Assembly (NCBI GenBank): GCA_031378375.1
Contig: JANNEF010000105.1
Coordinates: 693-64,692 of the forward strand
DNA: 64,000 nucleotides
From: Verrucomicrobiota bacterium
GTDB taxonomy: Bacteria > Verrucomicrobiota > Verrucomicrobiia > Limisphaerales > JANNEF01
Direction of reading: 5' to 3'
A program made the translations under genes and the position numbers. The notes beneath the pieces were generated by a model. It did not search any database, was not told the origin of the DNA, and worked only from the letters and a program-made list of their open reading frames with translations. Shown piece after piece: positions 9,143 to 63,575 of the stretch (its first letter is position 1; every line of letters begins with the position of its first letter).

Positions 9143-9964
9143 ATGGCATTCGCTACCGACACGTTGGGAATCATCGCCGGCAACCGCACCTTGCCGCTGG
9201 TTTTTGCCCGTCAGGCACGGAAACTCGGCGTGAAACGGCTCGTCGCCGTGGCGTTTGAGAACGAAACAGATCCCACACTGGCCACGCTGGTGGACCAGAT
9301 CATCTGGCTGCGGGTCGGTCAGCTCTCAAAAATGATCGCGGCTTTCACCGGCAACGGGATCGCCCATTGCGTCATGGTCGGTCAAATCGCGCCGAAAAAT
9401 CTTTTTGACCTGCGCCCCGATCTCCGCGCGATGGCGATGCTGCTGAAGCTCAAGGAAAAGAACGCGCATACAATCTTCGGCGCGATTGCCGGCGAGTTGC
9501 AACGCGACGGCGTGGAACTCATCCCGGCCACGCCCTGGCTGCAACCGCTCATGCCAGATGCCGGTTTCCGGATCGGCCCCGAGATGTCCGCCGAACAAGC
9601 TGCCGATGTCGCCTTTGGTTTCCGCATGGCCAAGGAAATCTCGCGCTTGGAAATTGGCCAGACGGTAGTGGTGAAAAACGGCACCGTGCTCGCAGTGGAA
9701 GGCTTTGAAGGGACCGACGCCTGCCTCAAGCGGGGCACCGAACTCGCCGGCAAGTCCGGTGGTGCCGTCGCCGTAAAAGTCGCCAAGGAAAAACACGACC
9801 TGCGCTTCGATATTCCATGCGTCGGCCTCCAGACCATTGAAGTCTGCATCGCCGGGAAGATTTCCGCGCTGGCGCTGGAGGCCCGGAAGACTCTCGTGCT
9901 GGAGCAGGAAGTCATCGCACCACTGGCCACCAAACACCAGTTCACGCTCACCACCGTCAGTTAA
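9143..9964 (+). CDS. lpxI: UDP-2,3-diacylglucosamine pyrophosphatase LpxI (DUF1009 family)
   Basis: 273 aa. GIIAGNRTLPL, GQTVVVKNGTVLAVEGFEGTDACLKRG and FDIPCVG match the LpxI/DUF1009 pattern as I remember it. Confidence 0.75.
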   Translation: MAFATDTLGIIAGNRTLPLVFARQARKLGVKRLVAVAFENETDPTLATLVDQIIWLRVGQLSKMIAAFTGNGIAHCVMVGQIAPKNLFDLRPDLRAMAMLLKLKEKNAHTIFGAIAGELQRDGVELIPATPWLQPLMPDAGFRIGPEMSAEQAADVAFGFRMAKEISRLEIGQTVVVKNGTVLAVEGFEGTDACLKRGTELAGKSGGAVAVKVAKEKHDLRFDIPCVGLQTIEVCIAGKISALALEARKTLVLEQEVIAPLATKHQFTLTTVS

Positions 9965-11862: not shown

Positions 11863-11966
11863 GATTAATCAGTGAGTCAGTAATCAGTAAACCAGTGGTG
11901 TGGCAGCCCGGGGCAGTTACTCCGTCCGCCGGATACTGACTCACCGATTACTGGATACTGGTTCAC
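11863..11966. repeat. CAGT-word palindromic element (copy in the opp operon)
   Basis: The left arm is GATTAATCAGTGAGTCAGTAATCAGTAAACCAGTGGTG. The right arm is GGATACTGACTCACCGATTACTGGATACTGGTTCAC, built of reverse-complement words. A ~30-nt spacer separates them. Confidence 0.8.
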
Positions 11967-13629
11967 TTCCGCGCTTCTTCCGTATCGCATACACCGGATG
12001 TTCATCAATCAGGTTGGGATGAATGCCCTCGATACGCGCGGAATCGTAAAAATGAATTCCGGCGTAAAAGTAGAGCGGGACGATGGGCAGTTCGTCGCGC
12101 ACGAGCAGCGTCTCGGCTTCCCGTAAAAACTTCTCGCGTAGTCTCGGGTCGGTCTGGCGATTACCCTCGCGCACCAATTCGTCGTAGCGCGTGCTCTTCC
12201 AGCCGGTGCGGTTGTTGCCGTTGTTGCTCATGAACATGTCGAGAAACGTGTTTGGATCGTTGTAGTCCCCGACCCAACTGCTGCGGCCCACGTCGTAGTC
12301 CAGCGCGCGCAACGCGACCAGATACACTTTCCACTCCGCCTGGCGCAATTCCATACGGATGCCCAGTTCCCGTTGCCACATCGCCTGGATTTCCACGCTG
12401 ATCTGCTCGTCGGTCTTGCCGGTGTTGAACAGGTACTGGAACACCGGAAACCCCTTGCCGCCGGGAAAGCCGGCCTGCGCCAGAAGCTTCCGCGCCTGAT
12501 CCGGATCGTAGTCCAGACCTGCGGGCGGATCGTAAACCGGCATTCCCCTGGGCGTGAAATGCGCCGCCACCCGCTCGCCGCCGCGCGTGATTTTTTCGAC
12601 GATGCGCCGCTTGTCCACCGCCAGCGCCAGCGCCCGGCGCACCCGCACGTCGTCGAAGGGCTTCCGCGTCACGTTGTAGCGGTAGAACAGCGTGCCGAGA
12701 TAATCAAACGTGTGGCAGTCCGGGCGGCGCCGCAACGCGTCCATCAACTGGCCGGGGACCAGCGACTTGTCCCAGATGATGTCCGCCCGGCCGGTGAGAT
12801 AGAGATTGATGGCCGTCATCGGCGAGTCCATCGAGAGAAAATCCACCACGGAACTGTGGACGTTCGCCGCGTCCCAGTAGCGCGGATTGCGGCGCACGCG
12901 GATGCGGTCCTGCAGCCGCCACTCGACCAGTTCGTACGCGCCGCTCACTGGCATCGGTGGCATCACGACCCAGCGATCGCCGTGCTTTTCGATGGCGAAC
13001 TTCGGCGCAACGGCAAGCGTCGGAAACGCGCACAGGTCCAGGAAGAACGGCGTGGGGCCAGTCAGTTCCGCCCGCACCGTGTGAGCGTCGAGCGCACGCA
13101 CGCCAACTTGTGCCGGATCTTTGATTCGGCCGCTGTTGAACTCCTCACCGTTCTTCAGGAAAAACAATTGTCCGGCGTAATCGGCGGCAGTGTTCGGGTC
13201 GAGCACTCGAATCCAGGAATAGACCACGTCCTCCGCCGTGATCGGCTGGCCGGTGGACCAGGCGGCATTGGTGCGCAGATGAAAAGTGTAGGTCGTGCCG
13301 TCCGGCGAAATCTCCCACCGGTGAGCCAGGCCCGGTTCGGGAGCCGCGTTGGTGGGATTGATGCGCGTCAATCCCTCGAAGAGCGCCCGCACTACGCGCC
13401 CGTCCGCCTGGCCAGTGATGATCGCCGGGTCGAGCGATTCCGGCTCCGCGCCGTTGATGATGACGAGGTCGGCGCGAGACGGAACGGCCGGGCGGGCGGA
13501 AAGGAGCGGCAGCAACAGGAGCGGCAGCAACAGGAGCAGCAGCAACGGCAGCGGGCGCACCGCGCACGACGCCCCCAAAAAACGAAACGCCCTCTTGAAA
13601 CTCAAGAGGGCGTCCGTGGAAAACTTCAT
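11941..13629 (-). CDS. ABC transporter substrate-binding protein, family 5 (OppA/DppA-like)
   Basis: 562 aa. A Leu-run signal peptide is followed by typical family-5 segments (INGAEPESLDP, WSTGQPITAEDVVYSW, RRALALAVDK). The last 8 codons and the stop lie inside repeat element 11863-11966. Confidence 0.85.
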   Translation of the reverse strand: MKFSTDALLSFKRAFRFLGASCAVRPLPLLLLLLLPLLLLPLLSARPAVPSRADLVIINGAEPESLDPAIITGQADGRVVRALFEGLTRINPTNAAPEPGLAHRWEISPDGTTYTFHLRTNAAWSTGQPITAEDVVYSWIRVLDPNTAADYAGQLFFLKNGEEFNSGRIKDPAQVGVRALDAHTVRAELTGPTPFFLDLCAFPTLAVAPKFAIEKHGDRWVVMPPMPVSGAYELVEWRLQDRIRVRRNPRYWDAANVHSSVVDFLSMDSPMTAINLYLTGRADIIWDKSLVPGQLMDALRRRPDCHTFDYLGTLFYRYNVTRKPFDDVRVRRALALAVDKRRIVEKITRGGERVAAHFTPRGMPVYDPPAGLDYDPDQARKLLAQAGFPGGKGFPVFQYLFNTGKTDEQISVEIQAMWQRELGIRMELRQAEWKVYLVALRALDYDVGRSSWVGDYNDPNTFLDMFMSNNGNNRTGWKSTRYDELVREGNRQTDPRLREKFLREAETLLVRDELPIVPLYFYAGIHFYDSARIEGIHPNLIDEHPVYAIRKKRGSEPVSSNR

Positions 13630-22722: not shown

Positions 22723-23435
22723 TCAGAGTCGCCACATCCACCGTGAGAATCGCCCTGGTAGGAGACCACAGTCCCGATGTGAAGGCCCACGCGGCCATTC
22801 CCAAAGCTTTGACCCTGGCTGCCGGAACTGTTGGCACGGAGGTTTCAGTCGAATGGCTCCCAACGCAGGCGCTGCTTGGCAATGACCTCAAAAGACTGGG
22901 CGGTTTCCAAGGTATCTGGTGCGTGCCCGGCAGCCCATACGTGAGCATGGAGGGAGCGCTCCGGGCGGTTCGATTCGCCCGCGAGCGCATGGTTCCATTC
23001 CTCGGCACTTGTGGTGGGTTCCAGCACACACTAATCGAGTATGGCCGGAGCGTGCTCGCTTTGACCGAGGCCGACCATGCCGAGTCCAACCCTTCCGCAA
23101 GTTTCGCCCTGATCGCTCCCCTGTCCTGCCCTCTCAGAGAAACCGTCGCGCGCATCCATCTCCGTCCAGGCTCACGCGCAGAAGTCATTTATGGTCAGCC
23201 AGAGACAATCGAGACGTTCAACTGCGGCTACGGGCTTAACCCGGAGCACCAAACGCTCTTCTCAAATGGCGCCTTGCGCATCAGCGGCGTGGCGGACGAC
23301 GGATCGGTACGCATTGTGGAGTTGCAGGATCATGCTTTCTTCCTGGCTGCTTTGTTCCAACCCGAACGATCGGCAGAGCGCAACCATTCACATCCGCCGA
23401 TCGTGGCATTTGCTCGCGCCGCACTCGCCGCATGA
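22719..23435 (+). CDS. Class I glutamine amidotransferase-like protein (CTP synthase C-terminal-domain homolog)
   Basis: 238 aa. VRIALVGD, FLGTCGGFQ (nucleophile elbow) and HAFFLAALFQPERSAERNHSHPPIVAFARAA align with the CTP synthase GATase domain (E. coli ...[31 protein letters not shown]). The GTG start overlaps the remnant moxR stop (GTGA), and the stop overlaps the remnant DUF58 start (ATGA). Confidence 0.75.
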   Translation: MIRVATSTVRIALVGDHSPDVKAHAAIPKALTLAAGTVGTEVSVEWLPTQALLGNDLKRLGGFQGIWCVPGSPYVSMEGALRAVRFARERMVPFLGTCGGFQHTLIEYGRSVLALTEADHAESNPSASFALIAPLSCPLRETVARIHLRPGSRAEVIYGQPETIETFNCGYGLNPEHQTLFSNGALRISGVADDGSVRIVELQDHAFFLAALFQPERSAERNHSHPPIVAFARAALAA

Positions 23436-23490
23436 TCCTCCGCGAAATTCTCAAAAAACTCCGGCAGATCGAGATTTGCTCGAACCGTGT
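23432..23490 (+). pseudogene. Duplicated 5' end of the DUF58 gene (remnant)
   Basis: 23432-23487 aligns with the true DUF58 start 24076-24131 at 51/56 identical nt (hand count): MILREILKKLRQIEICSNR versus MIPREILKKIRQIEIRTNR. Similarity ends after ~19 codons. Confidence 0.85.
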
Positions 23491-23506
23491 TCTGCCGGTG
23501 TTCCGT

Positions 23507-24036: not shown

Positions 24037-24075
24037 GGAACCAAATTTAGCGGTCACGATACATTTTGCAAGCGC

Positions 24076-25026
24076 ATGATCCCCCGCGAAATCCTCAAAA
24101 AAATCCGGCAGATCGAGATTCGCACGAACCGGCTCGTGAGCGAGACGCTTGCGGGCCAGTACCACAGCGTCTTCAAAGGCCAGGGCATGAACTTCGAGGA
24201 AGTGCGCGAATACCAGCCGGGCGACGAGGTGCGCGCCATTGATTGGAACGTCACCGCGCGCATGAACCATCCGTTCGTGAAAAAGTTCGTCGAAGAGCGC
24301 GAGCTGACGCTCATGCTGCTCGTGGACCTGAGCGGCTCCGGCCTGTTCGGCTCTGGCGAGCAGAGCAAGCGCGAACTGGCGGCGGAAATCGCGTCGGTGC
24401 TCGCCTTCTCCGCCATCCGCAACAATGACAAGGTGGGCTTGATTCTGTTCACCGATGAGGTGGAGAAGTTCATGCCGCCGCGCAAGGGCAAGAAACACGT
24501 CTTGCGGGTCATCCGGGAAATTCTTTTCTCCGAGCCGAAGCGGCGCGGCACGGACTTGAACTGCGCGCTGGAATTCCTGGTGCGCGTCACGCCCCATCGC
24601 GCCATCGCGGTGATTCTGTCGGATTTTCTGGAGCCGGGCACCGCCAGTCCGATCTCCCGCCTTCGTCCCGGCGCGACGGGTGAGACGAAGAACCTCGCCC
24701 AGGCCTCCTACACCGCACTGCGCCAGGCCAATCGCCGGCACGATGTCGTCGCGGTGCAAATCGCCGACCGCTTCGAGCAGGAACTGCCCGCGCTGGGCCG
24801 CCTCGTGCTCAAGGACGCGGAAACGGGCGAAGTGGTGGAAGTGAACTCCAGCGACACGCGCAAGCGCGACGCCTTCGCGCGGCAGCAGGCGGTGGCGCAG
24901 GAGGAGTTGATGCGCCTGTTCCGCTCCGCGCGCATTGACGCAATCCAGTTGCGCACCGACCAGCCGTACGGCTCGGAGCTGGGGCGGTTCTTCGAGACAC
25001 GGGAGAAACGGCGGATGCGTGGTTAA
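24076..25026 (+). CDS. DUF58 domain protein (Bat operon member)
   Basis: Track ORF trimmed to the ATG at 24076 (MIPREILKKIRQIEIRTNRLV). GQYHSVFKGQGMNFEEVREYQPGDEVRAIDWNVTAR and LLVDLSGS are DUF58 hallmarks. Confidence 0.9.
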   Translation: MIPREILKKIRQIEIRTNRLVSETLAGQYHSVFKGQGMNFEEVREYQPGDEVRAIDWNVTARMNHPFVKKFVEERELTLMLLVDLSGSGLFGSGEQSKRELAAEIASVLAFSAIRNNDKVGLILFTDEVEKFMPPRKGKKHVLRVIREILFSEPKRRGTDLNCALEFLVRVTPHRAIAVILSDFLEPGTASPISRLRPGATGETKNLAQASYTALRQANRRHDVVAVQIADRFEQELPALGRLVLKDAETGEVVEVNSSDTRKRDAFARQQAVAQEELMRLFRSARIDAIQLRTDQPYGSELGRFFETREKRRMRG

Positions 25027-26660: not shown

Positions 26661-26786
26661 AATAGTAATCAGTGGGTCAATAATCAGTGAATCAGTCACT
26701 GAGAAGCGAGGTTCACCGTCCCGCATAGCTGCGATCGCCATTGATCACTGGTTCACTGATTACTGACCTACTGACCCACTGACAAC
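26661..26786. repeat. CAGT-word palindromic element (batA-batB intergenic copy)
   Basis: The left arm is AGTAATCAGTGGGTCAATAATCAGTGAATCAGTCACTGAG. The right arm is TTGATCACTGGTTCACTGATTACTGACCTACTGACCCACTGAC, e.g. TCAGTGGGTCA pairs with TGACCCACTGA. The spacer is ~37 nt. Confidence 0.85.
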
Positions 26787-33764: not shown

Positions 33765-36700
33765 CTATTCCTTGGTGATGGCTTCGTCGAGGTTCAGCAA
33801 CACGCGGCTGACAACGGTGTAGGCGGCCAGTTGCGCGGGCGTGACGCCTGGAGGCAGATTCTTGGGCAACTCGCTCGCACCGGTGGCGATCTCATTCGGG
33901 TTCAACCAGCCCTCGCCGAGGCGCTGGCGCTGTTTGTCCAGAAGTGAAAGCAATTCCTTGCGCTCCTCGTCGGCGGGCGGGCGGGCGAGAACGCGGCGGA
34001 AGGCGTAGGTGACGCGCTCGGCGTCGGTCTTGCCGCCCTCGGCGAGAGTGCGACGGGCCAGGGTTTGCGCGCATTCGACAAACATCGGCTCGTTCAGCGA
34101 AACGAGCGCCTGGAGCGGCGAGTTGGAGCGGAGACGGCGCACGCAAGCCTGGTCGGCGTTGGGCACGTCGAAGGTTTGCAACACCGGATAGGGCGTCGAC
34201 CGGCGGCGAAACGTGTAGAGGGCGCGGCGATATTTCTCGGCGCCTTCCTCGTCCTTCCAGGGAAACGGCGCGTAGCTGGCGGGCGGCTGGAAGATGAACG
34301 CGGGCGCGGGCGGCATCACGCTGCGTCCGCCAATTTTCGGATTGAGCAGGCCGCTGGCGGCCAGCGCAATGTCACGCACGATCTCGCCCTCGACCCGGAA
34401 ACGCGGACCGCGCGCGAGGAGGCGGTTGTAAGGATCGCGCTCGTGGAGTTCCGGGGTGACGCGGCTGCTCTGGCGGTAGGCGGCGCTGTTCACGATGAGC
34501 CGGTGGAGGTGCTTCACACTCCAGGGGCGTGATGCGTGATGCGTGATGCGTGCAGTCGGCTCCATGAACTCGCACGCCAGCCAGTCGAGCAACTCTGGAT
34601 GGCTCGGAGCCTCGGCCTGGGTGCCAAAGTCCTCCGAGGTGCTGACCAGACCGAGGCCGAAGTAGGCCTGCCAGACGCGGTTCACGAACACGCGCGCCGT
34701 CGTCGGCGATTTCCCGTCGGCGAGCCATCGGGCGAACGTCAGACGTGTCGGCGGCGCGCCGCTGGGGAGTTGATGCAACACCGCCGGCACCCCGGGCGTG
34801 ACGGGCTTGGTGGGCTTGAGCCAGTCACCACGCTTGAGCACGCGGGTGTCGCGCGACTCTTCGCGCGTCAGCAACGTGAGGGCGGTCGCGCCGGCGGGCC
34901 AGTCGTTCATCAAGGCATCAATCTTTGCATTCGCCTCCTTCCACTCCGGGACGGTCGCGCGCCAATGGCTGAACACGGCGGCGGTTTGCGCGGGCGTGCG
35001 CTGGCCACGGGGAACATGCTGGATGATTTCGCGAATATTTCTTGGAAGCGGATCGACGGCGAGGTTGGTGGCGGCTGTCGTCACACTGAGGCGGAAGCGA
35101 CCGAGGTTGTTGTTCATGTGGTCGTCGCTGTTCCAGCCGCCGTGGTTTTGCTGGAGGCCGAGGCGCCACACCGTGCCATTGGTGAAACCCACCGGCTGGT
35201 CCGCGACGAAGACGGCCTTGCGCTCCTGGTTGCGGCGACCGGGACCGGCGTCGATGCCCCAGGCCGTGTCGCCCTTGCCATCAATGGCGAAGGCGATGGG
35301 ACCGGTGACGCGGGCGTTGGTGGACTTGTCATCGTAGTTGGTTTCGAGTTTGCGCTCGGGCTGGCTGTAGTCGGCGGTGGCGGCGGCCCATTTCACTTTC
35401 ACCTTGTTCGTCTTGTTCTGCACGTCGCCGGCCTCAACCTGAAACTCGCTGAGCGCGCAAGTCCCCATGAACGAACGACCCGGCCCGCCAAAGGGGAGAT
35501 TCGGATCGTTCAGGTATTCGAGGCGAAAGGCCGTGACGCCGGAGAGATTGTTCGTGAGACGGAACCATTGCGTGAACTTCGTCGGTGCGTAGCCCTCGGC
35601 CAGCAGCGAACCATCCTTCAGAAACTGGTAACGCTGCGACTTGTCGCCTTCCGGGTCGAGCTCGTGCAGCACGGTCCATTCGGGCTGGTTGGCGGTAACT
35701 TTCTTTTCCCACGCCGCCATGCGCTCCTCCCAGTCGGGCGCGCGATGACGGAGATCGCTTTCAATCTCCGCGATGCCGCGATGGATGCCGGCGACCCGCA
35801 TCTGCTCGTCTGGCGTGTACACGGCGGGCCGCGCCTCGTGGTCGCTGTTGATGAAGGCGAACATCCGGTAATACTCCTCCTGCGAGAGCGGATCGTATTT
35901 GTGGTTGTGGCACTGGGCGCACTGGATGGTGAGGCCAAGTATCGCTTTGCCGATGGCGTCCATGCGATCGAACATCGCATCCATGCGGAACTGCTCCGGG
36001 TCAATCGCGCCCTCCTGGTTGAGCATCGAGTTGCGGAGGAAGCCGGTGGCGACAAGCTGGTCCTGGGTGCGATTGGGAAGCTGGTCCCCCGCGAGTTGCT
36101 CGACGATGAACTGGTCGTAGGGCAAATCCTTGTTGAACGCGCCGATGACGTAATCGCGGTAGAAGTAAGCCTGGCGCGACATGTCCTTCTCGTAACCGTC
36201 GCTGTCCGCGTAGCGCGCGGCGTCAAGCCAGTGCCGACCCCACCGCTCGCCGTAATGCGGCGAACTGAGCAGGCGCTCAACTTGTTTCTGGTAGGCGTCC
36301 TTCGTTTTGTCAGCGAGGAAGGCGTCCACCTCAGCGGGTGTCGGCGGCAGGCCGACCAAATCCAGCGCGAGTCGGCGCAGCAACGTCGTTTTGTCGGGCT
36401 CGGGCGACGGTTTGAGTTTTTCCTTTTCCAACCGGGCGAGGACGAAGGCGTCAATCGGCGTGCGTGGCCAGTTCTGATTTTTGACCTTGGGCGGCGCGGG
36501 CCGGGCGGGCGGCGTGAAAGCCCAGTGCGGTCCCCTGGCCGCCTTGCTCAAGTTGTCAGGCCACTTCGCGCCTTGATCAATCCACGCGCGCAACAAGCCG
36601 ATTTGTTCCGCCGAGAGGCGTTCGCCTTTTTGAGGCATGACGTCATCCGGGTTCGCGCCGGTGACGAGCTGGATGAGATGGCTCCCGGCGCTGTTGCCTG

Positions 36701-36944
36701 GCACGACGGCGGGTTTGCCCGACTCGCCGCCACGTAGCGCGACGGCTTTGTCGTCGAGGCGGAAACCGGATTTTTGCTTCTGGTCACCGTGGCATTCGTA
36801 GCAACGGCCGGCGAAGATGGGCTGAATATCACGGGCGAAATCCACCACGACAGGCGCCGGCGCCGCCACAGCACGAGCGGGCCAATCCGCTGCGCCGAGC
36901 ACGAGGGCGAAGATGAGTGCGGAATGAGCTTTCATGCCGCGCAT
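33765..36944 (-). CDS. PSCyt1 / DUF1549 (PSCyt2) / DUF1553 (PSD1) domain protein
   Basis: 1059 aa. It has a signal peptide and the haem-binding-type motif [17 protein letters not shown]. The later segments ([36 protein letters not shown]) match this PVC-typical family. Confidence 0.88.
   Translation of the reverse strand: [1059 protein letters not shown]
34527..34554. repeat. Heptamer tandem array (GCGTGAT)x3-4 inside the PSD1-family gene
   Basis: GCGTGAT GCGTGAT GCGTGAT GCGTGCA. On the coding (minus) strand it is translated as [10 protein letters not shown]. Confidence 0.85.
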
Positions 36945-38541: not shown

Positions 38542-38642
38542 CTCACTCAAGCAATCGGCAGATTTGGCGAAGTGTTTACTGTCCACGGCAATATATTTTC
38601 CCGTTCCGCCCCAGAGTGCAAACTGTTCCCGGCGATTTTTGA

Positions 38643-38677
38643 CTCGAAACCCGAAACTCGAAACTCGAAACTCGCCC
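38643..38677. repeat. Heptamer tandem array (CTCGAAA)x5, directly upstream of the ispD start
   Basis: CTCGAAA CCCGAAA CTCGAAA CTCGAAA CTCGCCC, ending 1 nt before the ispD ATG (38679). Confidence 0.9.
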
Positions 38678-48240: not shown

Positions 48241-48247
48241 TTCGCCG

Positions 48248-49960
48248 ATGCCCAGCCCGCCTTCAACCAGACAACCCTTGCGCGAATCCGACACGAACGA
48301 CGGGCGCACGCTGATTGACGACTTGCTCGCCGAGCAGCGTCAACTCACCGCCGTCGAACAATTCTCCCGCGCGCACGACGCCCACGAAGTCCACGGCCGC
48401 CGCTACCGCGATCTGCTTCCCGCCAATGCGCCCGCGCCCGGACAGCAATACGCCTTCGAGGTGGACCTCGACCAGTGCAGCGGCTGCAAGGCGTGCGTGA
48501 CCGCGTGCCATTCGCTCAACGGCCTCGACGACGACGAGACCTGGCGCAGCGTCGGCGCGTTGCACTCCGCCAATGTGCGCCAGCCGCTCAAACAGATCGT
48601 CACCACGGCCTGTCATCATTGCGTGGATCCCGGTTGCCTCACCGGCTGTCCCGTGCTCGCCTACGACAAAGACCCCGTCACGGGCATCGTTCGCCACCTG
48701 GATGACCAGTGCATCGGCTGCCAGTATTGCGTGATGAAATGTCCCTACGAGGTGCCGCAGTACTCGAAGACTCGCGGCATCGTGCGCAAGTGCGACATGT
48801 GCAGCTCGCGCCTCGCCGTCGGTGAAGCCCCCGCGTGCGTGCAAGCCTGCCCGAACGAGGCGATCCGCATCACGGTGGTGGATCAGGCGAAGGTGCGCGG
48901 GAAGTATCGCAGGCTAAAATCCGAAGGCCGAAATCCGAAATCCGAATCAAATCCGAAGGCCGATAACCAAAACTCGCCATTCGGATTTCGGAATTCTTTC
49001 GGGCTTCGGGCTTCAGATTTCGGATTTCACAACTCCTTCCTCCCCGACTCGCCGAATCCCGCCATCACGCTTCCGACGACCCGTTACGTTTCCAAGCGCG
49101 CCCTGCCCGGCGACCTCGAAGCCGCTGACGCCCATGAACTCCGCCGCGCGAAGCCGCATCCGCCGCTCACCCTCATGCTGGTGCTCACCCAACTCGGCGC
49201 GGGGCTGGCGCTGATGGACGCGCTCACGGGCGGCGCGGCGCGGATGCTGGCAGCCGTCGCCCTCGCGGCCAGCGCCCTCGGCGTCGTCGCGGGCACGCTG
49301 CACCTGGGCCAGCCGCTCAAGGCGTGGCGCAGTTTTCTCGGCTGGCGCAAATCATGGCTGAGTCGCGAGTTGATTGCCTTCGGCGCTTTCGTCGGCGTGC
49401 TCGGCTCGCATCTGGCCATTGGCCGTCCGCTCTCCGCCGGTCTCGCCGCGCTCACCGGACTCCTCGCGGTCGCGTGCTCGGCGATGGTTTACGCGGACAC
49501 GCGCCGGCCGTTCTGGAACGCGCCGATGACATTTGGAAAATTCCTCGGCACCACGCTGTTGCTCGGCGGGGCGGGGTCCCTGTTGCTGTCGGCGCTTGCC
49601 ACGAATCCACTCCTGCCGCGCCCTCTGGTGGTCGCCGTGATCGTGCTCGGCACCATCTTCAAGCTGGCCGTGGAGAATCGCATCTTCCGCTTTCTCGTGG
49701 ACGAACAAGACCCGCACCTCACCGCTCTCAACAAGACCGCCCTGCTGCTCAACGGCCTGTTCGGCCGGCTCTCGCGCGGTCGCGTGGCTTGCGCCCTCGC
49801 GGGTGGAGTGGTGCTTCCGGCGTTGATGCTTGTCACCGGCGCGGGCGTCGCCTTGCCCGCGTTGGCGCTGACGTTGTGCGTCGCGGGTGAACTCATCGAG
49901 CGCCATCTCTTTTTCGTCGCCGAGGTCGCGCCCAAAATGCCGGGAGGCCGGGGAGTATGA
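48248..49960 (+). CDS. Fusion of a 4x[4Fe-4S] ferredoxin (DmsB/NrfC-like) and a DmsC-like polytopic membrane anchor
   Basis: Track ORF trimmed to the ATG at 48248. It has four Cys clusters ([41 protein letters not shown]...CVQACP). About 8 hydrophobic helices follow, from residue ~300. The stop overlaps the nasA start (ATGA). Confidence 0.8.
48915..49030. repeat. AATCCGA-word palindromic element (in-frame copy inside the FeS/DmsC gene)
   Basis: The left arm is TAAAATCCGAAGGCCGAAATCCGAAATCCGAATCAAATCCGAAGGCCGA, followed by a 15-nt spacer. The right arm is ATTCGGATTTCGGAATTCTTTCGGGCTTCGGGCTTCAGATTTCGGATTTCAC. It is translated as [39 protein letters not shown]. Confidence 0.85.
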
Positions 49961-52362
49961 AGACCACGGGAGCCACAACCAGGCGCGCGGCTGTGGTCGC
50001 AGACCCAGCCGCAGCGCCCACGCAACGACAACGAGCTGCGGCTGATCCTACGGACCCAGCCGCGCTCCAATCGAACTCCCTTCTCCGTCAATGGAGCGGC
50101 CCGCTGTCCTCCGACCTCACGTTGCATCCCGGCGACTTTGGTCTCGGCAGAATCCCCGCCCGCCTTCGCCCCGACGCCACCACACGCTCCATCTGCGGCT
50201 TCTGCTCCACGGGCTGTTCGCTTGACGTTCACCTGCAATCCGGCGTGGCCGTGAACCTCACGCCCACGGTGGACTATCCGGTGAATCTGGGCATGGCGTG
50301 CCCGAAAGGCTGGGAGGCGCTCACCTGTCTGGCCGCGCCGGATCGCGCCACACAACCGCTTTTGCGCAATCCCGACACCGGCAAACTCGAACCCACCGAC
50401 TGGGACGAAGCGATGCAGGTCTTCACGCTGAAGTTCAAGGCGCTGATGGATCAGCACGGGCCGGAGAGTGTGGCGTTTCTCAGCACCGGCCAGATTTGCA
50501 CGGAGGAGATGGCGCTCCTCGGCGCGCTTTGGAAGTTCGGCATGGGCGCGTTGCACGGCGACTCGAACACGCGCCAGTGCATGGCCACCAGCCACGTTGC
50601 CTACAAGCAGAGCTTCGGCTTCGACGCGCCGCCCTACACCTACGCGGACTTCGAGGAGTCGGACACGCTCGTCTTCATCGGCTCGAATCTCTGCATCGCG
50701 CACCCGATTCTCTGGCAGCGCGTCCTGCGGAACAAAAAAAATCCCGCCCTCATCGTCATTGACCCGCGCAAGACGGAGACGGCGATGAACGCGACCCAGC
50801 ACGTCGCGCTGCGGCCCAAGTCCGACCTCACGCTGCTCTACGGCCTGGCGAACCTGCTGGTGCAGGGCGGCTGGATTGACCGCGCGTTCATCGAGCGCAG
50901 CACGACGGGATTCGCGGAGTTCGCGGAGTTCGTGCGGCAGTTCACACCCGACAAAGTTGCGGCGGAGACCGGCTTGACCGTGGGCGAATTGTCCCGCGTC
51001 GCCGAGACCATCGCGAAGGGCAAGGCCGTGAGTTTCTGGTGGACGATGGGCGTGAACCAGAGCCACGAGAGCACGCGCACCGCGCAGGCCGTCATCAATC
51101 TCGCGCTGATGACCGGCAACATCGGCCGTCCCGGCACCGGCGCGAACAGCATCACCGGCCAGTGCAACGCGATGGGCTCGCGCCTGTTCGCCAACGCCTC
51201 GGGACTGCTTGGCGGGCGCGACTTCCTCAACGCTGAACATCGCGCCGAGGTATCGCGCGCGTTGCACATCGCGCCGGAAAGCATTCCCGCGAAGAACTCG
51301 CTCGCCTACGACCAAATCATGCAGGGCATCGCCGAGGGCCGGATCAAGGGCCTATGGGTCATCGCCACGAACACGGCGCACTCGTGGATTGATTCCGCCC
51401 GCGCCTGTGGCGCACTCGACAAGCTGGAATTTCTCGTCGTGCAGGACATGTTCACGACCACCGACACGGCGAAACGCGCGCATCTGATTTTGCCCGCCGC
51501 CGGCTGGGGCGAGAAGGAGGGCACGTTCATAAACAGCGAGCGGCGCTTCGGTCACATCAAGAAAGTGTCACGCGCGCCCGGCCAGGCGTTGAGCGATTTT
51601 AACATCTTCCGCCTGGTAGCCGAATACTGGGGCTGCGCCGGGATGTTCAGCCAGTGGACTTCGCCGCAGGCCGTTTTCCAAATCCTGAAAAGACTTTCCG
51701 CCGGTCGCCCGTGCGACATCACGGGCATCGAAGACTACCGGCATCTGGATGCGAGCGGCGGGATTCAGTGGCCGCTGGCAAAAGAACGTGAGTCAGTAAT
51801 CAGTGAGCCAGTGACCAGTGAACGCGAGATGGCGACGGGTTCCGCTACTGATTCACTGAATACTGGCGCACTGATTACTGATCACTCTCCCCGCGAACGC
51901 CGCCTCTTCGCCGACGGCAAGTTCTTCACTCCCGATGGCCGCGCAAAATTCCTCTTTGACCCGCCACGTCCCGTCGCCGAGCCGGTGGACAGCGAGTATC
52001 CGTTCGTGCTGTTGACCGGACGCGGCACGAGCGCGCAATGGCACACAAACACGCGCACCGGCAAGTCCGCCGTCTTGCGCACGCTGTATCCGGCCAACCC
52101 CTACGTGGAGATCCATCCGAAAGACGCCGCGCGATTGCGAATCGAACCAAACACGACCGTCGCCGTCATCTCACGACGCGGGCGCGTTGAGTGCGCCGCG
52201 GTGGTCACACCCATCGTGCAGCCCGGACAGGTCTTCATCCCGATGCATTACGACCTGACGAACCAATTGACCCGCGCCGAGTTCGATCCGCACTCGCGCC
52301 AGCCCAGCTACAAACATTGCGCAGTGCGAATTGAACCGACGCGCAACGGTTCCAACAAATGA
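49957..52362 (+). CDS. nasA: Molybdopterin (bis-MGD) oxidoreductase, assimilatory nitrate reductase type (NasA/NarB-like)
   Basis: 801 aa with an N-terminal FeS motif ([10 protein letters not shown]...CPKG) and MGD-binding segments ([14 protein letters not shown]). The C-terminal barrel has [20 protein letters not shown] and the tail [10 protein letters not shown]. Confidence 0.85.
51788..51887. repeat. CAGT-word palindromic element (in-frame copy inside nasA)
   Basis: The left arm is GTGAGTCAGTAATCAGTGAGCCAGTGACCAGTGAAC, followed by a 23-nt spacer. The right arm is TACTGATTCACTGAATACTGGCGCACTGATTACTGATCACTC. It is translated as [33 protein letters not shown]. Confidence 0.85.
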
Positions 52363-54233: not shown

Positions 54234-56017
54234 TGGAAACCAACTTGATTCCCTACCTGCCCGACACGGCGCCGTTCACGCCGGAGCAACGAGCCTATTT
54301 GAACGGGCTGTTCGCCGGCCTGTTCGCCCACGCGCCGCGCGCCACCAACCCGGCGCCTGCCGCCAAGCCACTGCTACCGCTGACCATTCTGTTTGGCTCG
54401 CAGACCGGCAATGCGGAGGCGCTCGCCAAGCGCGTCGCCAAGGAAGCCGGCAAGCAGGGCTTCGCGCCGACGATCTTTGACGCGGCGCAATATCCGCGCG
54501 AGCAACTCAAGACCGAGAAGCATCTGCTGCTCATCACCAGCACCTACGGTGACGGCGAACCGCCGGACAACGCAAAGGACCTGTGGGAATTTCTCACCGC
54601 CACCACCGCACCCGCGCTGCCGGAGTTGAAGTTCTCCGTGCTGGCCCTGGGCGACACGAACTACGAAAAGTTCTGCGAGTGCGGGAAAAACTTCGACCGC
54701 CGCTTCCATGAGCTGGGCGCACACCGGGCGCATCCGCGCGTGGATTGCGACGTGGACTTTGAGGAGCCATTCGGGAACTGGCTGGCCGGCGCGTTGGGCG
54801 CGCTGGCAGGCGGTGGGGGAGTAATCAGTGAATCAGTAATCAGTAGGTCAGTGACCAGTGCGCCCGTCTCTGCCACTGATTCACTGGTTACTGGTTACTC
54901 GCGCGCCCACCCGTTCCCCGCCCCGCTCGTCGCCAACCGCCGGCTCAACGCTCCCGGCTCGGGCAAGGACACGCGGCATTTTGAAATCGCACTCGACGGC
55001 AGCGGCTTGACCTATGAAGTCGGCGACGCGCTGGGGGTGGTGCCGGCGAATTGCCCGGAACTCGCGGACGAGATGCTTCGCACGCTCGGCTGCACCGGCG
55101 GGGAAGCGGTGCCCGGCGCGAAGGGTGGCGAAGTCCCGCTGCGCGAGGCGCTGTTGCGGCATTACGACATCACGAAGATTGCCCAGCCGCTCTTGCAGGC
55201 AATGGCAGAGCGGAGCGGGGACGAGTTGCTCAAGCAACTCACCGCGCCCGGTGTGAACGGCGAGTTGACGAAATTTCTCTGGGGCCGCGAGATTGTTGAC
55301 CTGTTGCTGGCGCACCCGCGCGCGAAGTTCGCACCGATGGAATTTGTCGGCCTGCTCAAGAAACTTCAGCCGCGGCTCTACTCCATTTCCTCCAGCCCCA
55401 AGGCACATCCCGGCCAGGTGCATCTCACTGTCGGGGTCGTGCGCTACGAATCGCTGGGCCGGGCGCGCAAAGGCGTGTGCTCCACGTTCCTGGCGGAGCG
55501 CGCGGGCGGCGGCGCGGCGGCGCCGGTCTTCGTCCACACGAACAAAGGCTTTCGCCCGCCCGCCGATGGCAGCCGTCCGATGATCATGGTCGGGCCGGGC
55601 ACGGGCATCGCGCCGTTCCGCGCTTTTCTGGAAGAGCGTCGCGCCGTCGGCGCGACGGGAAAGAACTGGCTGTTCTTCGGCGACCAACGGTCGGAGATGG
55701 ATTTCCTCTACCGCGAAGAGCTGGAGGCGATGCATCGCGACGGCACGCTGGCGCGGCTGGACACGGCTTTCTCCCGCGATCAGGAAGAAAAGATTTACGT
55801 GCAACAGCGAATGCTCGAACACGCCACCGAACTGTTCACCTGGCTGGAGGCCGGCGCGCATTTCTACGTCTGCGGCGACGCCAACCGCATGGCGAAGGAC
55901 GTGGACCGGGCGCTGCACCAGATCATCGAGCAAGCCGGCGGACGCACGGCAGAGCCGGCGGCGGAGTACGTGAAGAAGATGCAGGCGGAGAAGCGGTATC
56001 AGCGGGATGTGTATTGA
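54230..56017 (+). CDS. Diflavin reductase, sulfite reductase flavoprotein CysJ-like (flavodoxin + FAD/NADPH domains)
   Basis: 595 aa with an FMN domain ([32 protein letters not shown]) and an FAD/NADPH domain ([42 protein letters not shown]). Start is GTG 54230 or ATG 54233; both overlap the nirA stop. Confidence 0.88.
54821..54900. repeat. CAGT-word palindromic element (in-frame copy inside the cysJ-like gene)
   Basis: The left arm is GTAATCAGTGAATCAGTAATCAGTAGGTCAGTGACCAGTG, followed by a 13-nt spacer. The right arm is CACTGATTCACTGGTTACTGGTTACTC. It is translated as [27 protein letters not shown]. Confidence 0.85.
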
Positions 56018-56063
56018 AGCGTGAAACGGAAAACAAGCGCGACGACAATCACGCTTTCACGTT

Positions 56064-56990
56064 TCACGTCTCCATGCCCGGCAAATCCCGCCGGTCCATC
56101 CGCATCCCCGCCGCCACGTTGCGGCACAGCCGGCAGAAGGTTTCCTCCACCAGACTCAGCCGGCGGCCCGCGAGCGAGGCGATCACCCACTGACGGCGCA
56201 ACGGTTTCGGGCCGAGCGGGCGCATCCGCAGCGTGCCGCGCGCGAGTTCCTTGTCGGCGGTCCACGGCGCGAGCACGGAGACGCCAAGGTTGAGCTTCAC
56301 CAGTTCCTTGATCGCCTCGATGCTGGCGATCTCCATCACGGTGCTGGGCACCAGATCGAGGCCGCGGAAGTATTCGTCCACCAGTTGCGCCGTCAGGCTG
56401 GCGCGCTGGTAAAGGATGAGCGGCTGCGTGCGCAAATCATCGCGCGCAATGATCTCGCCGGCGGCCCACGGATGCGACGGCGCACAGACGAAGAGCAGCT
56501 CATCCTTGCACACGGGACGGACCTCCAGATCCGGCAGTCGTTCGGGCGCGACCCCCAGCGCGAGATCGATCCGGTTCTGCTGAATCAACTCCACCATCTC
56601 CGGCATGTCGCCCGATTCGACCTGCAGGGAGAAATTCGCGGACGACTTCTTCAACTCGCGGATGACGGCCGGCAAAATGTACTGGCAGGCGGAAGCCGCC
56701 GCGCCGATGCGCAGGCGCGTCTGGCCCCATTTGCCGAGGCGCTTGAGCGATTCCTCGGCGGCGGCGAGCGCCTGCATGGGTTGTTGGATTTGAGCCAGGA
56801 GCTGTTCGCCCGCCTGGTTAAGCAACATTTTTTTGCCCGCGCGGTCGAACAAGCGACAGCCGAGCTGCGTCTCGAGCGTCTTCAACCCGTGGCTGATGGC
56901 CGACGGCGTGAGATGCAGTTGGGCGGACGCCGTCACGAGGCTGCCGTGGCGGGCGACGGCGGAAAACATTCTGAGCTGGCGCGTGTCCAC
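56064..56990 (-). CDS. LysR-family transcriptional regulator
   Basis: 308 aa. It has an N-terminal wHTH (MFSAVARHGSLVTASAQLHLTPSAISHGLKTLE) and a LysR substrate-binding domain. It is convergent with the nitrate operon. Confidence 0.9.
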   Translation of the reverse strand: MDTRQLRMFSAVARHGSLVTASAQLHLTPSAISHGLKTLETQLGCRLFDRAGKKMLLNQAGEQLLAQIQQPMQALAAAEESLKRLGKWGQTRLRIGAAASACQYILPAVIRELKKSSANFSLQVESGDMPEMVELIQQNRIDLALGVAPERLPDLEVRPVCKDELLFVCAPSHPWAAGEIIARDDLRTQPLILYQRASLTAQLVDEYFRGLDLVPSTVMEIASIEAIKELVKLNLGVSVLAPWTADKELARGTLRMRPLGPKPLRRQWVIASLAGRRLSLVEETFCRLCRNVAAGMRMDRRDLPGMET

Positions 56991-59146: not shown

Positions 59147-59181
59147 CAAAGTTCAAAGTTCAAAGTTCAAAGTTCAAAGGG
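59147..59181. repeat. Heptamer tandem array (CAAAGTT)x5 upstream of gatC
   Basis: CAAAGTT x4 followed by CAAAGGG, located 25-59 nt upstream of the gatC start (59122, minus strand). Confidence 0.9.
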
Positions 59182-62392: not shown

Positions 62393-62416
62393 GAAATCCG
62401 AATGCCGAAAATCCGA
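62393..62416. repeat. Partial AATCCGA-word array next to the pheS stop
   Basis: GAAATCCGAATGCCGAAAATCCGA: two to three copies of the same word as in 48915-49030, with no obvious inverted partner. Confidence 0.5.
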
Positions 62417-62419
62417 CGT

Positions 62420-63478
62420 TCAGAACTGCCGCAGAAACCGCGCGTCGTTCTCGTAGAACAGCCGGATGTCGGTGATGCCATAGCGAATCATCGCGATGCG
62501 CTCAATGCCGAAGCCGAACGCCCAACCGCTCCACACCTCGGGATCGTAGCCGACCGTCTCAAAAACCTGCGGATGAACCATGCCGCAGCCGGCGATCTCC
62601 AGCCAGTCCTTGCCCATCTTGCGGACGAGCGAACTGGAGAAATCAATTTCGAAGCTCGGCTCAGTGTAGCTGAAGTAGTGCGGCCGGAACCGCAACTTCA
62701 CTTCGTCGCCAAGCAACTCCTTGAAGACAAATTCAACCGTGCCCTTGAGATCGCCGACGGTGACGTTCTTGTCCACGTAAAGCCCCTCGATCTGCTGGAA
62801 GGTCGGGTTGTGCGTCGCGTCGGCGTTGTCGCGGCGATAGACGCGACCCGGCACGATGATGCGCACCGGCGGCGGCTGTTTTTGCATCACGCGGATTTGG
62901 ACGGAACTGGTGTGCGTGCGCAGCAGGAACGGTTTCGGTGCCCCGGCACCCGGCACCGCGCCCGCAGCGGCAGGGGCACCGCTCGCGGAAGACGGGGTCA
63001 GATAAAACGTGTCCTGGGCGTCGCGCGCCGGATGGTCGGCAGGCGTGTTCAACGCATCGAAGCAATGATACTCGTCTTCGATCTCCGGCCCGTCGGCGAC
63101 AACAAACCCAATCTTCCGGAAGCTCCGCACGATGTCGTCGGTCACCTGGGTGAGCGGATGCAGTTTGCCAAGCGGACGACGACGGCCGGGCAACGTGAAG
63201 TCCGTCGGCTCCTTGGGCAGCGCGGCTTGCAATTCCAGTTCGGCGCGGCGGCTGGCGAGCGCCGCTTCGAGTTCAACCTTGGCCACGTTGACGAGCTTGC
63301 CGGCCGCGGGCTTTTCCTCCTTCGGCAGCGCACCCAGTTGTTTGAGCAACGCGGTAAATTTGCCCTGGCTGCCGAGGTAACTGCCCTTGGCTAGATCAAG
63401 GGCGGGGAGGTCGGCGGCGGCTTTCAATTCCGCCAGCGCGGCCTGTTTGAGCGGTTCGATTTCGTTGAGAAATGACAT
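62420..63478 (-). CDS. pheS: Phenylalanine--tRNA ligase alpha subunit
   Basis: Track ORF trimmed to the ATG at 63478 (MSFLNEIEPLKQAALAEL). Class II motifs are present: HPARDAQDTFY, LLRTHTSSVQIR, GRVYRRD, GWAFGFGIERIAMIRYGI. Confidence 0.93.
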   Translation of the reverse strand: MSFLNEIEPLKQAALAELKAAADLPALDLAKGSYLGSQGKFTALLKQLGALPKEEKPAAGKLVNVAKVELEAALASRRAELELQAALPKEPTDFTLPGRRRPLGKLHPLTQVTDDIVRSFRKIGFVVADGPEIEDEYHCFDALNTPADHPARDAQDTFYLTPSSASGAPAAAGAVPGAGAPKPFLLRTHTSSVQIRVMQKQPPPVRIIVPGRVYRRDNADATHNPTFQQIEGLYVDKNVTVGDLKGTVEFVFKELLGDEVKLRFRPHYFSYTEPSFEIDFSSSLVRKMGKDWLEIAGCGMVHPQVFETVGYDPEVWSGWAFGFGIERIAMIRYGITDIRLFYENDARFLRQF

Positions 63479-63575
63479 GCGAATTTGCGCGGGCAGGATA
63501 GTGCAGGCCGGCGGGCCGACCAACAAAAAACGGGCGGCCACTCAAGGCCGCCCGCGTGGTGATTCGAAATTTCGG

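Follow-up and report, generated by a model that had tools for sequence, protein, structure and literature searches.

How does a long palindrome built of seven-nucleotide words come to lie in frame within a conserved enzyme gene? The question is raised by positions 48911-49030 of a 64,000-nucleotide (nt) stretch of contig JANNEF010000105.1 from a Verrucomicrobiota bacterium (the window), where such a palindrome lies within a gene for a fusion of an iron-sulfur protein and a DmsC-like membrane anchor (FeS-DmsC). We hold, with roughly even confidence, that the element is non-essential repeat DNA of a heptanucleotide-array-hairpin class, mutational in origin with some copying, and tolerated in a permissive linker. 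The coordinates of the features are collected in Table 1.

An inverted-repeat search found an imperfect palindrome at 48917-49027, with 47-nt arms that are 74% complementary around a 17-nt spacer. Tandem Repeats Finder (TRF) found period-7 arrays of AAATCCG (6.3 copies, 48917-48957) and of TTCGGAT (7.4 copies, 48980-49028). Both searches confirm an earlier note on this DNA, which had described a palindromic AATCCGA/TCGGATT insert at 48915-49030. Its placement of the insert between the ferredoxin part and the membrane anchor also holds, as the insert lies in frame between Fer4_11 (aa 119-210) and DmsC (aa 341-558). The copy counts in the note stand for the left arm, where AATCCGA is exact at 48918, 48932, 48939 and 48950 and AGGCCGA occurs twice. 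In the right arm, the three to four copies of TCGGATT are reached only if one mismatch is allowed, because just two are exact (48981, 49020) and two more are TCGGAAT (48988) and TCAGATT (49013). The reported two copies of CTTCGGG were a miscount, since it is exact once and the other copy is TTTCGGG. Divided into units, the insert reads AGGCT AAAATCCGA AGGCCGA AATCCGA AATCCGA ATCAAATCCGA AGGCCGA TAACCAAAACTCGCCA, followed by TTCGGAT TTCGGAA TTCTTTCGGGC TTCGGGC TTCAGAT TTCGGAT TTCAC.

The AATCCGA word is not enriched across the window as a whole (14 observed, 9.6 expected), and its signal is one of local clustering rather than of window-wide abundance. The only other array of this word in the window is the 24-nt partial array at 62393-62416, which lies, as the note had it, right after the pheS stop, at a distance of 3 nt (pheS, Pfam-confirmed, 62420-63541, minus strand). 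The GC content of the insert is 46-50%, against ~64-81% in its flanks; taken as single values, these are 46% and ~67%. Its RNA folds at -47 kcal/mol (z = -4.6), and none of 200 shuffles was equally stable. The AAATCCG word contains no stop codon in any frame of either strand, and the insert is translated in frame into 40 residues, the A-rich arm giving K/S/E/N/P/R and the mirror arm F/G/R/S/D. Rfam gave no match at or above the gathering threshold in the whole 64-kb window, and a terminator and promoter scan returned nothing at 48911-49030.

The host gene belongs to a nitrate-assimilation cluster that also contains genes for NMT1-type binding proteins and ABC transporter components, for a porin and an MFS transporter, and for three redox enzymes: a molybdopterin oxidoreductase, a NIR_SIR reductase and a flavodoxin/FAD reductase. 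The best homologue of FeS-DmsC is 79% identical in protein sequence, and the nearest locus in the genome collection is 70% identical. In an alignment of 32 homologues, ...VRGKYR and a 14-residue segment are conserved, and the stretch between them is wholly different among proteins that are 68-80% identical. Pfam places no domain over aa 211-340 of the fusion. The genome collection yielded 80 orthologous loci in which this linker site could be located. In Planctomycetota, Myxococcota and other outgroups, the linker is fixed at 24 nt (8 codons), as in VEDSEANV. Verrucomicrobiota linkers measure 21-30 nt in several loci and reach up to 300 nt, with many unexpanded. The linker is at least 60 nt long in 21 of the 80 loci, and ten of these 21 expansions fold with z < -3, compared with 1 of 112 random control segments. 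The expansions are mostly palindromes, many of them made from other heptamers: GTTGAAG/CTTCAAC in L018, GAAGTCG/CGACTTC in L020 and L056, GAAAGTG/CACTTTC in L052 and GGAAAAG/CTTTTCC in L083. One-armed arrays occur as well, of TTCAACC in L001 and of CCGAAAT, which is the window's own word, in L009, and L073 carries 300 nt of GCGGA-type arrays. The insert is thus an insertion relative to the outgroups, into a permissive site. Judged by the many Verrucomicrobiota that have no expansion there, it is probably dispensable.

These data bear directly on whether selection acts on the encoded peptide, as a conserved linker domain or as a functional low-complexity (FG-rich) spacer, to which the palindromic DNA would be incidental. 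The in-frame translation and its retention in three relatives are compatible with such a role, and linker length might matter for the placement of the FeS domain relative to the membrane. However, both the sequence and the length of the linker (8 to 100 residues) are hypervariable among orthologues, the composition is exactly what mirror-image heptamers dictate, and an identical DNA architecture is found in intergenic DNA. The peptide as such has no homologue in the protein search. AlphaFold predicts the insert to be disordered, with a predicted local distance difference test score (pLDDT) of ~30 and no secondary structure, and models the membrane domain with confidence. The absence of conservation effectively refutes a selected protein feature, which we regard as hardly credible. 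The earlier note had named homology to a conserved linker domain as the finding that would tell against its proposal. Such a domain is ruled out by a site that is hypervariable in the 32 homologues and the 80 loci and only 8 codons long in the outgroups, and by the empty peptide search.

Elsewhere in FeS-DmsC, at least three further sites carry repeat-like inserts in some homologues (alignment A1 columns 150-175, 540-585 and 615-670; carriers P0040, P0045, P0021, P0004, P0005, P0008, P0022 and P0026). Examples are GEKG...FPFSPF between the Cys clusters and GILPA...RQDAGAP in a membrane-domain loop. The linker is therefore the most used permissive site of the protein and not the sole one.

The AATCCGA word occurs at the same linker site in two relatives, where the insert measures 120 nt in L081 (protein P0001) and 81 nt in L082 (P0004). 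The window and L081 inserts are identical at 86 of 120 bases in an ungapped comparison, and in both of them an irregular 11-nt unit sits at mirrored positions of the two arms. Insert identity is 72% to L081 and 70% to L082; four-fold degenerate sites agree at 65% and 58%, and the nucleotides of the flanks at 82% and 76%. Set against these sites and flanks, the insert appears to evolve near-neutrally. The comparison supports vertical inheritance from before the split with L081 and L082, probably followed by near-neutral drift. Between the arms of the L081 copy is a 7-nt bulge, by which one arm is longer by a unit, and L081 alone contains a perfect GCCCGAA x3 sub-array, which the window copy lacks. 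Differences of this kind (the 7-nt bulge, the sub-array, and 81 versus 120 nt) may reflect copy-number change in unit steps, although the open reading frame (ORF) restricts insertions and deletions to multiples of three. The syntenic locus L083, with ~79% flank identity, carries an unrelated GGAAAAG hairpin at the linker site (30% identity).

The spacing of the repeats is the most general property of these elements. In the array test, chains of a 4-mer at fixed spacing were compared with shuffles and with other periods. Chains at 7-8 nt spacing occur at 9 loci in the window against 0.2 in shuffles, and other periods give none, except four loci at the overlapping 6-7 setting. Across 1.3 Mb of related loci, period 7-8 accounts for 55 loci and the other periods for 2-11. 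Every data set shows this specificity of the tandem arrays for period 7-8. Their density per 100 kb is ~14 in the window, 5.3 in Verrucomicrobiota loci, 2.9 in Planctomycetota and 0.7 in Myxococcota. The triple (AATCCGA)3 is present in at least 120 metagenome contigs of 32-70% GC. Among the matches listed, 24 of 133 AATCCGA arrays have an inverted partner within 250 nt, and 52 of 109 single arrays lie in stop-free read-through frames. The commonest irregular spacing among the same matches is 11 nt (CCGAAGGAAATCCGA 12 times, plus variants), which the window element has too. The A-rich arm is the 5' one in 29 of 36 AATCCGA hairpins, again among the matches listed, but the split is 16:14 for other words, and a universal rule of a purine-rich arm first was rejected.

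The idealised translation of such a hairpin matches 355 proteins. Almost every one is a short 'hypothetical protein' with no domain, from Gemmataceae, Pirellulales, Verrucomicrobia, Flavobacterium or Saprospiraceae, and these are spurious ORFs called over elements of this kind.

Word choice is uneven rather than exclusive. In IMG/VR viral contigs, where the chance expectation for a tripled word is far below 1, (AATCCGA)3 occurs in 30 stretches and (AATCAGT)3 in 45. A control of the same composition, (ACATCGA)3, also occurs in 30, which disposes of AATCCGA as a uniquely abundant word, whereas the controls (AACGTCA)3 and (AAGCCTA)3 occur in only 4 and 3. Arrays of all words tested are far above chance, and ~6-35% of them have inverted partners, which for every word are 2-3 times commoner than direct partners. 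Stop-codon avoidance was rejected as the reason for the shared words, since by estimate about half of all heptamers are open in all frames of both strands and the CAGT words, which are not open, still occur in ORFs. Unrelated words share one architecture, as the earlier note had stated: the window has CAGT, AATCCGA and CGTGAAA hairpins, and hairpins at the same loops of relatives use at least ten other words. This shared architecture, the period of 7-8 and the excess of inverted partners for every word tested favor a common, word-independent process, as the note had also proposed. Its statement that a single mobile sequence would not explain the pattern is unsupported in that form, given that words cluster by genome and share an 11-nt unit and an arm order. 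The note had also asked for a test of whether word identity clusters by genomic region; it does not, as CAGT and CCGA elements interleave along the window.

The stability of the stems raises a function of the nucleic acid itself, such as protection of the mRNA from 3' exonucleases, ribosome pausing, or binding sites for a protein or for the 3' tail of 16S rRNA. The latter presumably contains 5'-UUGGAU-3', and pairing with 5'-AUCCGA-3' is conceivable. The stems are very stable, at -47 to -68 kcal/mol with z from -4.6 to -7.7, and a hairpin is kept in three orthologues (z = -4.6 in the window, -7.7 in L081 and -2.3 in L082). Three successive genes of the operon and the operon's 3' end each have a hairpin, and in L083 the corresponding three sites within genes are occupied by hairpins that differ in sequence. 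At two sites, the linker and a molybdopterin-enzyme loop, 31% to 48% of the expansions that reach 60 nt or more have a fold of z < -3, against the 1 of 112 controls. Among the matches listed, AATCCGA arrays end within ~12 nt of a downstream start codon 13 times in sense and 4 times in antisense, which parallels the TAACTGA repeats (PMC4679880). A functional hairpin nevertheless seems quite improbable. The site is unexpanded in all outgroups and in many Verrucomicrobiota, the sequence evolves near-neutrally, the window copy has decayed to 74% complementarity, and there is no Rfam match. Covariation between the arms is too slight to interpret, at 2-3 compensatory pairs from only three sequences in an ambiguous repeat register, and template switching could keep a hairpin without selection.

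The origin that we favor for the element is mutational, and it could proceed in four steps. First, a 7-nt word (AAATCCG) would multiply by slipped-strand mispairing until a short run of tandem units had formed. This array would then be copied alongside itself in inverted orientation, by template switching within the molecule or by fold-back synthesis, giving an array, a loop and the reverse-complement array; this step leans on established quasipalindrome mutagenesis. Gains and losses of units in one arm, together with template-switch correction between the arms, would leave the arms roughly mirrored. Finally, preferred words would spread among sites of one genome by copying, through ectopic conversion or some mobility. 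The present copy would have arisen or landed in the short cytoplasmic linker that leads from the ferredoxin domain to the first transmembrane helix, in this scheme the only tolerant part of the fusion, and would be translated as a disordered 40-residue spacer. It could survive in an ORF because its length is a multiple of three and its word has no stops in any frame of either strand. A mutational origin is suggested by the period-7 specificity for any word, by arm differences in unit steps, and by a unit order that is unique to each copy yet internally mirrored.

Several observations weigh against this account. Local generation alone leaves the clustering of words by genome unexplained: a 4-mer core is shared by 19 of 65 within-genome site pairs (29%) but by 88 of 1016 between-genome pairs (8.7%), and 1 of 2000 permutations reached the observed value. 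The heptamer words are AT-rich although the genome is 62% GC. AATCCGA appears with the same irregular 11-nt unit and the 29:7 arm order in unrelated contigs of 32-70% GC, among the matches listed. The linker site has at least six different states among proteins that are only 20-30% diverged. Single 7-nt slippage steps are forbidden within an ORF, so that local dynamics must be slow or proceed in compensated steps. Finally, we infer slippage and template switching rather than observe them directly, the closest match being 79% identical in protein. The clustering by genome, the AT-rich words, the shared 11-nt unit and arm order, and the fast turnover imply some copying of word families from site to site as well, whether by ectopic conversion or by true mobility. 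For the first and third of these reasons, copying or mobility of word families is a live component of the explanation.

Alternatively, the insert could be a non-autonomous mobile element, whose arms would be arrays of heptamer binding or recognition sites and which would be mobilized in trans by a transposase or an HUH/Y1 nuclease encoded elsewhere. It would resemble MITEs (miniature transposable elements with inverted repeats), repetitive extragenic palindromes (REPs) and their hairpin doublets (REPINs), or Rickettsia palindromic elements (RPEs), and like the RPEs it would have entered a permissive site in frame. We consider this possible, but tentatively so. In its favor, words cluster by genome, and the AATCCGA family is spread over at least 120 contigs with a common 11-nt unit and the 29:7 arm order among the matches listed. 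Presence, absence and replacement at orthologous sites are sharp, as with the CAGT insert of the window and the different palindrome of L083, and the 355 database proteins are translations of such hairpins. In a composite sub-family, an AATCCGA hairpin lies inside an outer CTCACCCGCTG palindrome, AAATCCTCACCCGCTG(C/T)G(C/T)GGG ... CCCGCGCAGCGGGTGAGGATTT, in L114 (2089-2330) and in Gemmataceae proteins (P0127, P0149), and it recurs in unrelated contigs. No other observation hints as strongly that defined units are copied, at least for some of the elements. In L036, a heptamer hairpin has a further palindromic element nested in its loop, and in-frame REPs and RPEs provide a precedent (PMC3733652). 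On the other hand, each copy has a unit order of its own and a loop unrelated to the others, single-arm arrays outnumber hairpins by ~4:1, and control words of the same composition form arrays too. No direct repeat flanks the insert (...TATCGCAGGCT / CACAACTCC...), and no duplicated target is seen in the comparison with L083 and the outgroups. The insert at 48911-49030 has no conserved termini; GTAG/CTAC and CGTC/GACG, the tags of REPs, are absent from it, and its arms are 47 nt long and periodic. No gene for a transposase, a nuclease or a REP-associated tyrosine transposase (RAYT) was found among the ~45 window genes scanned with Pfam.

A bolder view, which we regard as improbable, is that bacteria of the Planctomycetes-Verrucomicrobia-Chlamydiae (PVC) group, and probably Bacteroidota too, have a dedicated system, indifferent to the word, by which heptamer arrays are written along with their mirror images wherever the DNA is unconstrained. 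The agent may be an enzyme or a copy mechanism directed at hairpins. If true, the same permissive protein loops and operon junctions would be overwritten time and again, with a steady supply of new translated low-complexity sequence as the outcome. Particular words, for instance AAUCCGA beside start codons, might then take on a role in regulation or ribosome binding.

Table 1. Host gene, parts of the AATCCGA hairpin and other heptamer elements in the 64-kb window.
Feature	Position	Strand	Remarks
FeS-DmsC host gene, 4Fe-4S dicluster and DmsC-like membrane anchor fusion	48242-49960	+	Pfam; homologues in Verrucomicrobiota metagenome-assembled genomes (MAGs)
Whole insert relative to orthologues	48911-49030	+	120 nt = 40 codons; flanked by conserved ...VRGKYR and a conserved 14-residue segment
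Left arm	48917-48963	+	AAATCCG AAGGCCG AAATCCG AAATCCG AATCAAATCCG AAGGCCG; fifth unit is the irregular 11-mer
Loop	48964-48980	+	17 nt, TAACCAAAACTCGCCAT
Right arm	48981-49027	+	TCGGATT TCGGAAT TCTTTCGGGCT TCGGGCT TCAGATT TCGGATT; irregular 11-mer mirrored at the matching position
Single-arm partial array, AATCCGA word	62393-62416		AATCCGA ATGCCGA AAATCCGA; 24 nt; 3 nt past pheS stop
CAGT-word hairpin	51785-51885	+	In frame, molybdopterin oxidoreductase loop; z = -7.6; absent from syntenic L083
CAGT-word hairpin	54820-54900	+	In frame, flavodoxin/FAD-binding linker; z = -6.5
CAGT-word hairpin	26663-26785		Intergenic; stops 5 nt short of ATG at 26790; z = -6.4
CAGT-word hairpin	11864-11960		Solute-binding-protein stop to permease start, minus-strand operon; z = -3.5
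CGTGAAA/TTTCACG hairpin	56018-56070		-23 kcal/mol, z = -4.6; exactly between stops of convergent reductase and LysR genes
ACTCGAA x4.7 single-arm array	38642-38674	+	Ends 4 nt before ispD start codon (ATG)
CAAAGTT x4.7 perfect single-arm array (AACTTTG on minus strand)	59147-59179	-	25 nt upstream of gatC start
GCGTGAT x3.7 perfect array	34527-34552		Inside PSCyt1/PSCyt2/PSD1 gene, 1059 aa, 33765-36944, minus strand

The window holds four CAGT-word hairpins, one AATCCGA hairpin, one CGTGAAA hairpin and four single arrays. The CAGT hairpins consist of AATCAGT, GAGTCAGT, GACCAGT and related units, with ACTGATT and the like as their mirror images. Each has its own unit order and its own GC-rich loop and is internally symmetric. 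Two of them lie in frame in interdomain loops and two in operon junctions, ending 5 nt from a start codon. The CAGT vocabulary recurs in L012, L018 and L202 and in very array-rich IMG/VR contigs such as L281. Single arrays stand close to start codons at ispD (ACTCGAA, 4 nt) and gatC ((AACUUUG)n, 25 nt). The perfect GCGTGAT array within the PSCyt/PSD1 ORF is a potential frameshift or phase-variation site. The position of the 56018-56070 hairpin is terminator-like, and the syntenic L083 has unrelated GC-rich palindromes there (L083 17765-17925). Apart from the heptamer elements, near-identical stretches of ~45 nt at 23432-23491 and 24048-24120, ~620 nt apart and near the start of a DUF58 gene, read ATGATCCyCCGCGAAATyCTCAAAAAAmTCCGGCAGATCGAGATT and encode MI(L/P)REILKK(L/I)RQIEI. 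They may be a partial duplication of the 5' end of that gene.

The pattern at the linker is repeated at other loci. The molybdopterin-enzyme loop between GGIQWP and a 10-residue motif was compared in 70 loci against a baseline of 33 nt. It measures at least 60 nt in 35 of the 70, with independent heptamer hairpins of differing words in both Verrucomicrobiota and Planctomycetota. The words are CCTCAAC in L025, L036 and L044, TCCGCAA in L073, GTGCGGA in L078, GGCAGAA in L056, GTCGAGA in L002 and CAGT in L018. In L083, the molybdopterin enzyme has no CAGT insert but a different palindrome with a 15-bp stem at the same position, and the flavodoxin/FAD linker has different palindromes. In-frame palindromic insertions seem common in PVC genes.

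Other observations at these loci deserve mention. Palindrome families that are not made of heptamers occupy the same permissive loops (L004 12579-12704, L008 12301-12426, L026 9884-9976, L036 13736-13885, L037 13411-13440/10610-10696, L059 5540-5635). One very stable family (-80 kcal/mol) encodes a peptide of the form 12 residues...AAAGHRDTAALR. A second, encoding PLTLALSP...SEG, is the one nested in the loop of a heptamer hairpin, and a third encodes GTPVSDPARF...RAGSETGAP. The Opitutaceae MAG locus L073 (230-19533) has 9 heptamer arrays in 21 kb from just two word families (CTGAAAx, GCGGAxT). Its 300-nt FeS-DmsC linker expansion (9654-9953) is in frame, and its molybdopterin loop has a 201-nt hairpin (13189-13389, -95 kcal/mol). 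A perfect (AGGTTAG) x7.5 array at L074 8892-8944 reaches the very end of an Opitutales contig, and long heptamer arrays may break short-read assemblies.

For the host protein, the element looks like tolerated baggage, and nothing suggests that the protein needs it. It is an ordinary feature of the protein and a moderately interesting one as a process that shapes genomes. If the class is real and general, it would account for hundreds of spurious 'hypothetical proteins' (KSEIRNPKSE...FGFRISDFGF and similar) and for many odd length differences between PVC orthologues. It would also point to a process, mutational or mobile, that moves in strict steps of 7 nt and shapes protein linkers as well as intergenic DNA in large environmental phyla whose repeats have hardly been studied. 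With its at least six states at one permissive site, among proteins that are 68-80% identical, the linker is a natural experiment on how repeats and palindromes arise, turn over and become coding.

How does the element relate to known systems? RPEs, reportedly described by Ogata et al. in 2000, lie in frame within functional genes. They and intragenic REPs are in-frame palindromes (PMC3733652). The present insert resembles them as a hairpin repeat of ~100-150 nt, in frame at a permissive surface or linker position and translated as an extra peptide. It is likewise an in-frame hairpin insert in a conserved functional gene that is absent from orthologues. RPE and REP copies, however, share a full-length consensus, whereas the elements described here consist of tandem 7-nt units with a copy-specific order and loop and come in many unrelated words. 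Copies in metagenomes have the word and the 11-nt unit in common but differ in loops, ends and unit order. Similarity to the RPEs in sequence was neither seen nor to be expected. REPs and REPINs are mobilized by RAYT (PMC3116915, PMC3733652). They too form dispersed hairpin doublets whose halves are more symmetric than independent decay allows, are sometimes intragenic, and are also found in PVC genomes. They differ in being 20-40 bp long, with a GTAG/CGTC tag, a linked RAYT and no reported 7-nt periodicity; here there is no tag, and no RAYT in the window. With MITEs, the insert shares inverted arms but not a target-site duplication.

The symmetry of the arms has a parallel in a mechanism rather than in an element family. 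Quasipalindrome template-switch mutagenesis, attributed to Ripley in 1982 and to the Lovett laboratory, is said to perfect imperfect inverted repeats and to create inverted duplications. It could yield the arm symmetry seen here without selection, although it is not known from these organisms or at this array length.

The period of the arrays connects them to the heptanucleotide repeats, among which the cyanobacterial short tandemly repeated repetitive (STRR) heptamers belong. Heptanucleotide simple sequence repeats (SSRs) are over-represented in bacteria, and polymerase slippage has been put forward as a hypothesis (Mrazek et al. 2007, as represented in PMC4679880 and PMC4692102). The GGGAATC/GGGGAYT repeats of Xanthomonas and Nostoc include occasional inverted pairs (PMC4692102). 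Like these long SSRs (LSSRs) and STRRs, the arrays studied here prefer 7-nt units over other periods, are mostly intergenic and vary between relatives. At the insert, TRF finds period 7 with 6.3 and 7.4 copies, and the window has its 9 loci against 0.2 in shuffles. Reported LSSRs and STRRs are arrays that stand singly and mostly between genes, use one or a few words, and come from Proteobacteria, Cyanobacteria and Actinobacteria. In contrast, the array studied here is joined to its reverse complement to give a long hairpin, in frame in genes, with many words and in PVC hosts. The TAACTGA direct repeats of Beggiatoaceae, Cyanobacteria and Bacteroidetes (MacGregor 2015, PMC4679880) are also heptamer arrays with a patchy spread across phyla, often a few nt upstream of start codons and occasionally in ORFs, and their word resembles the CAGT/ACTGA family of the window. 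In the genome described there, 169 sets are direct and 1 indirect, with one dominant word, as opposed to an inverted pair of another word within an ORF here. The upstream position typical of TAACTGA is not that of 48911-49030, but it is that of the array at 38642-38674 (ispD) and of the hairpin at 26663-26785 (ATG 26790). A literature search of incomplete coverage gave no description of heptamer-array hairpins, of in-frame ones, or of such repeats in PVC bacteria. The class is widespread in Verrucomicrobia, Planctomycetes and neighbouring phyla, and apparently undescribed. In summary, it combines two known kinds of repeat, the in-frame palindromic repeats and the heptanucleotide SSRs.

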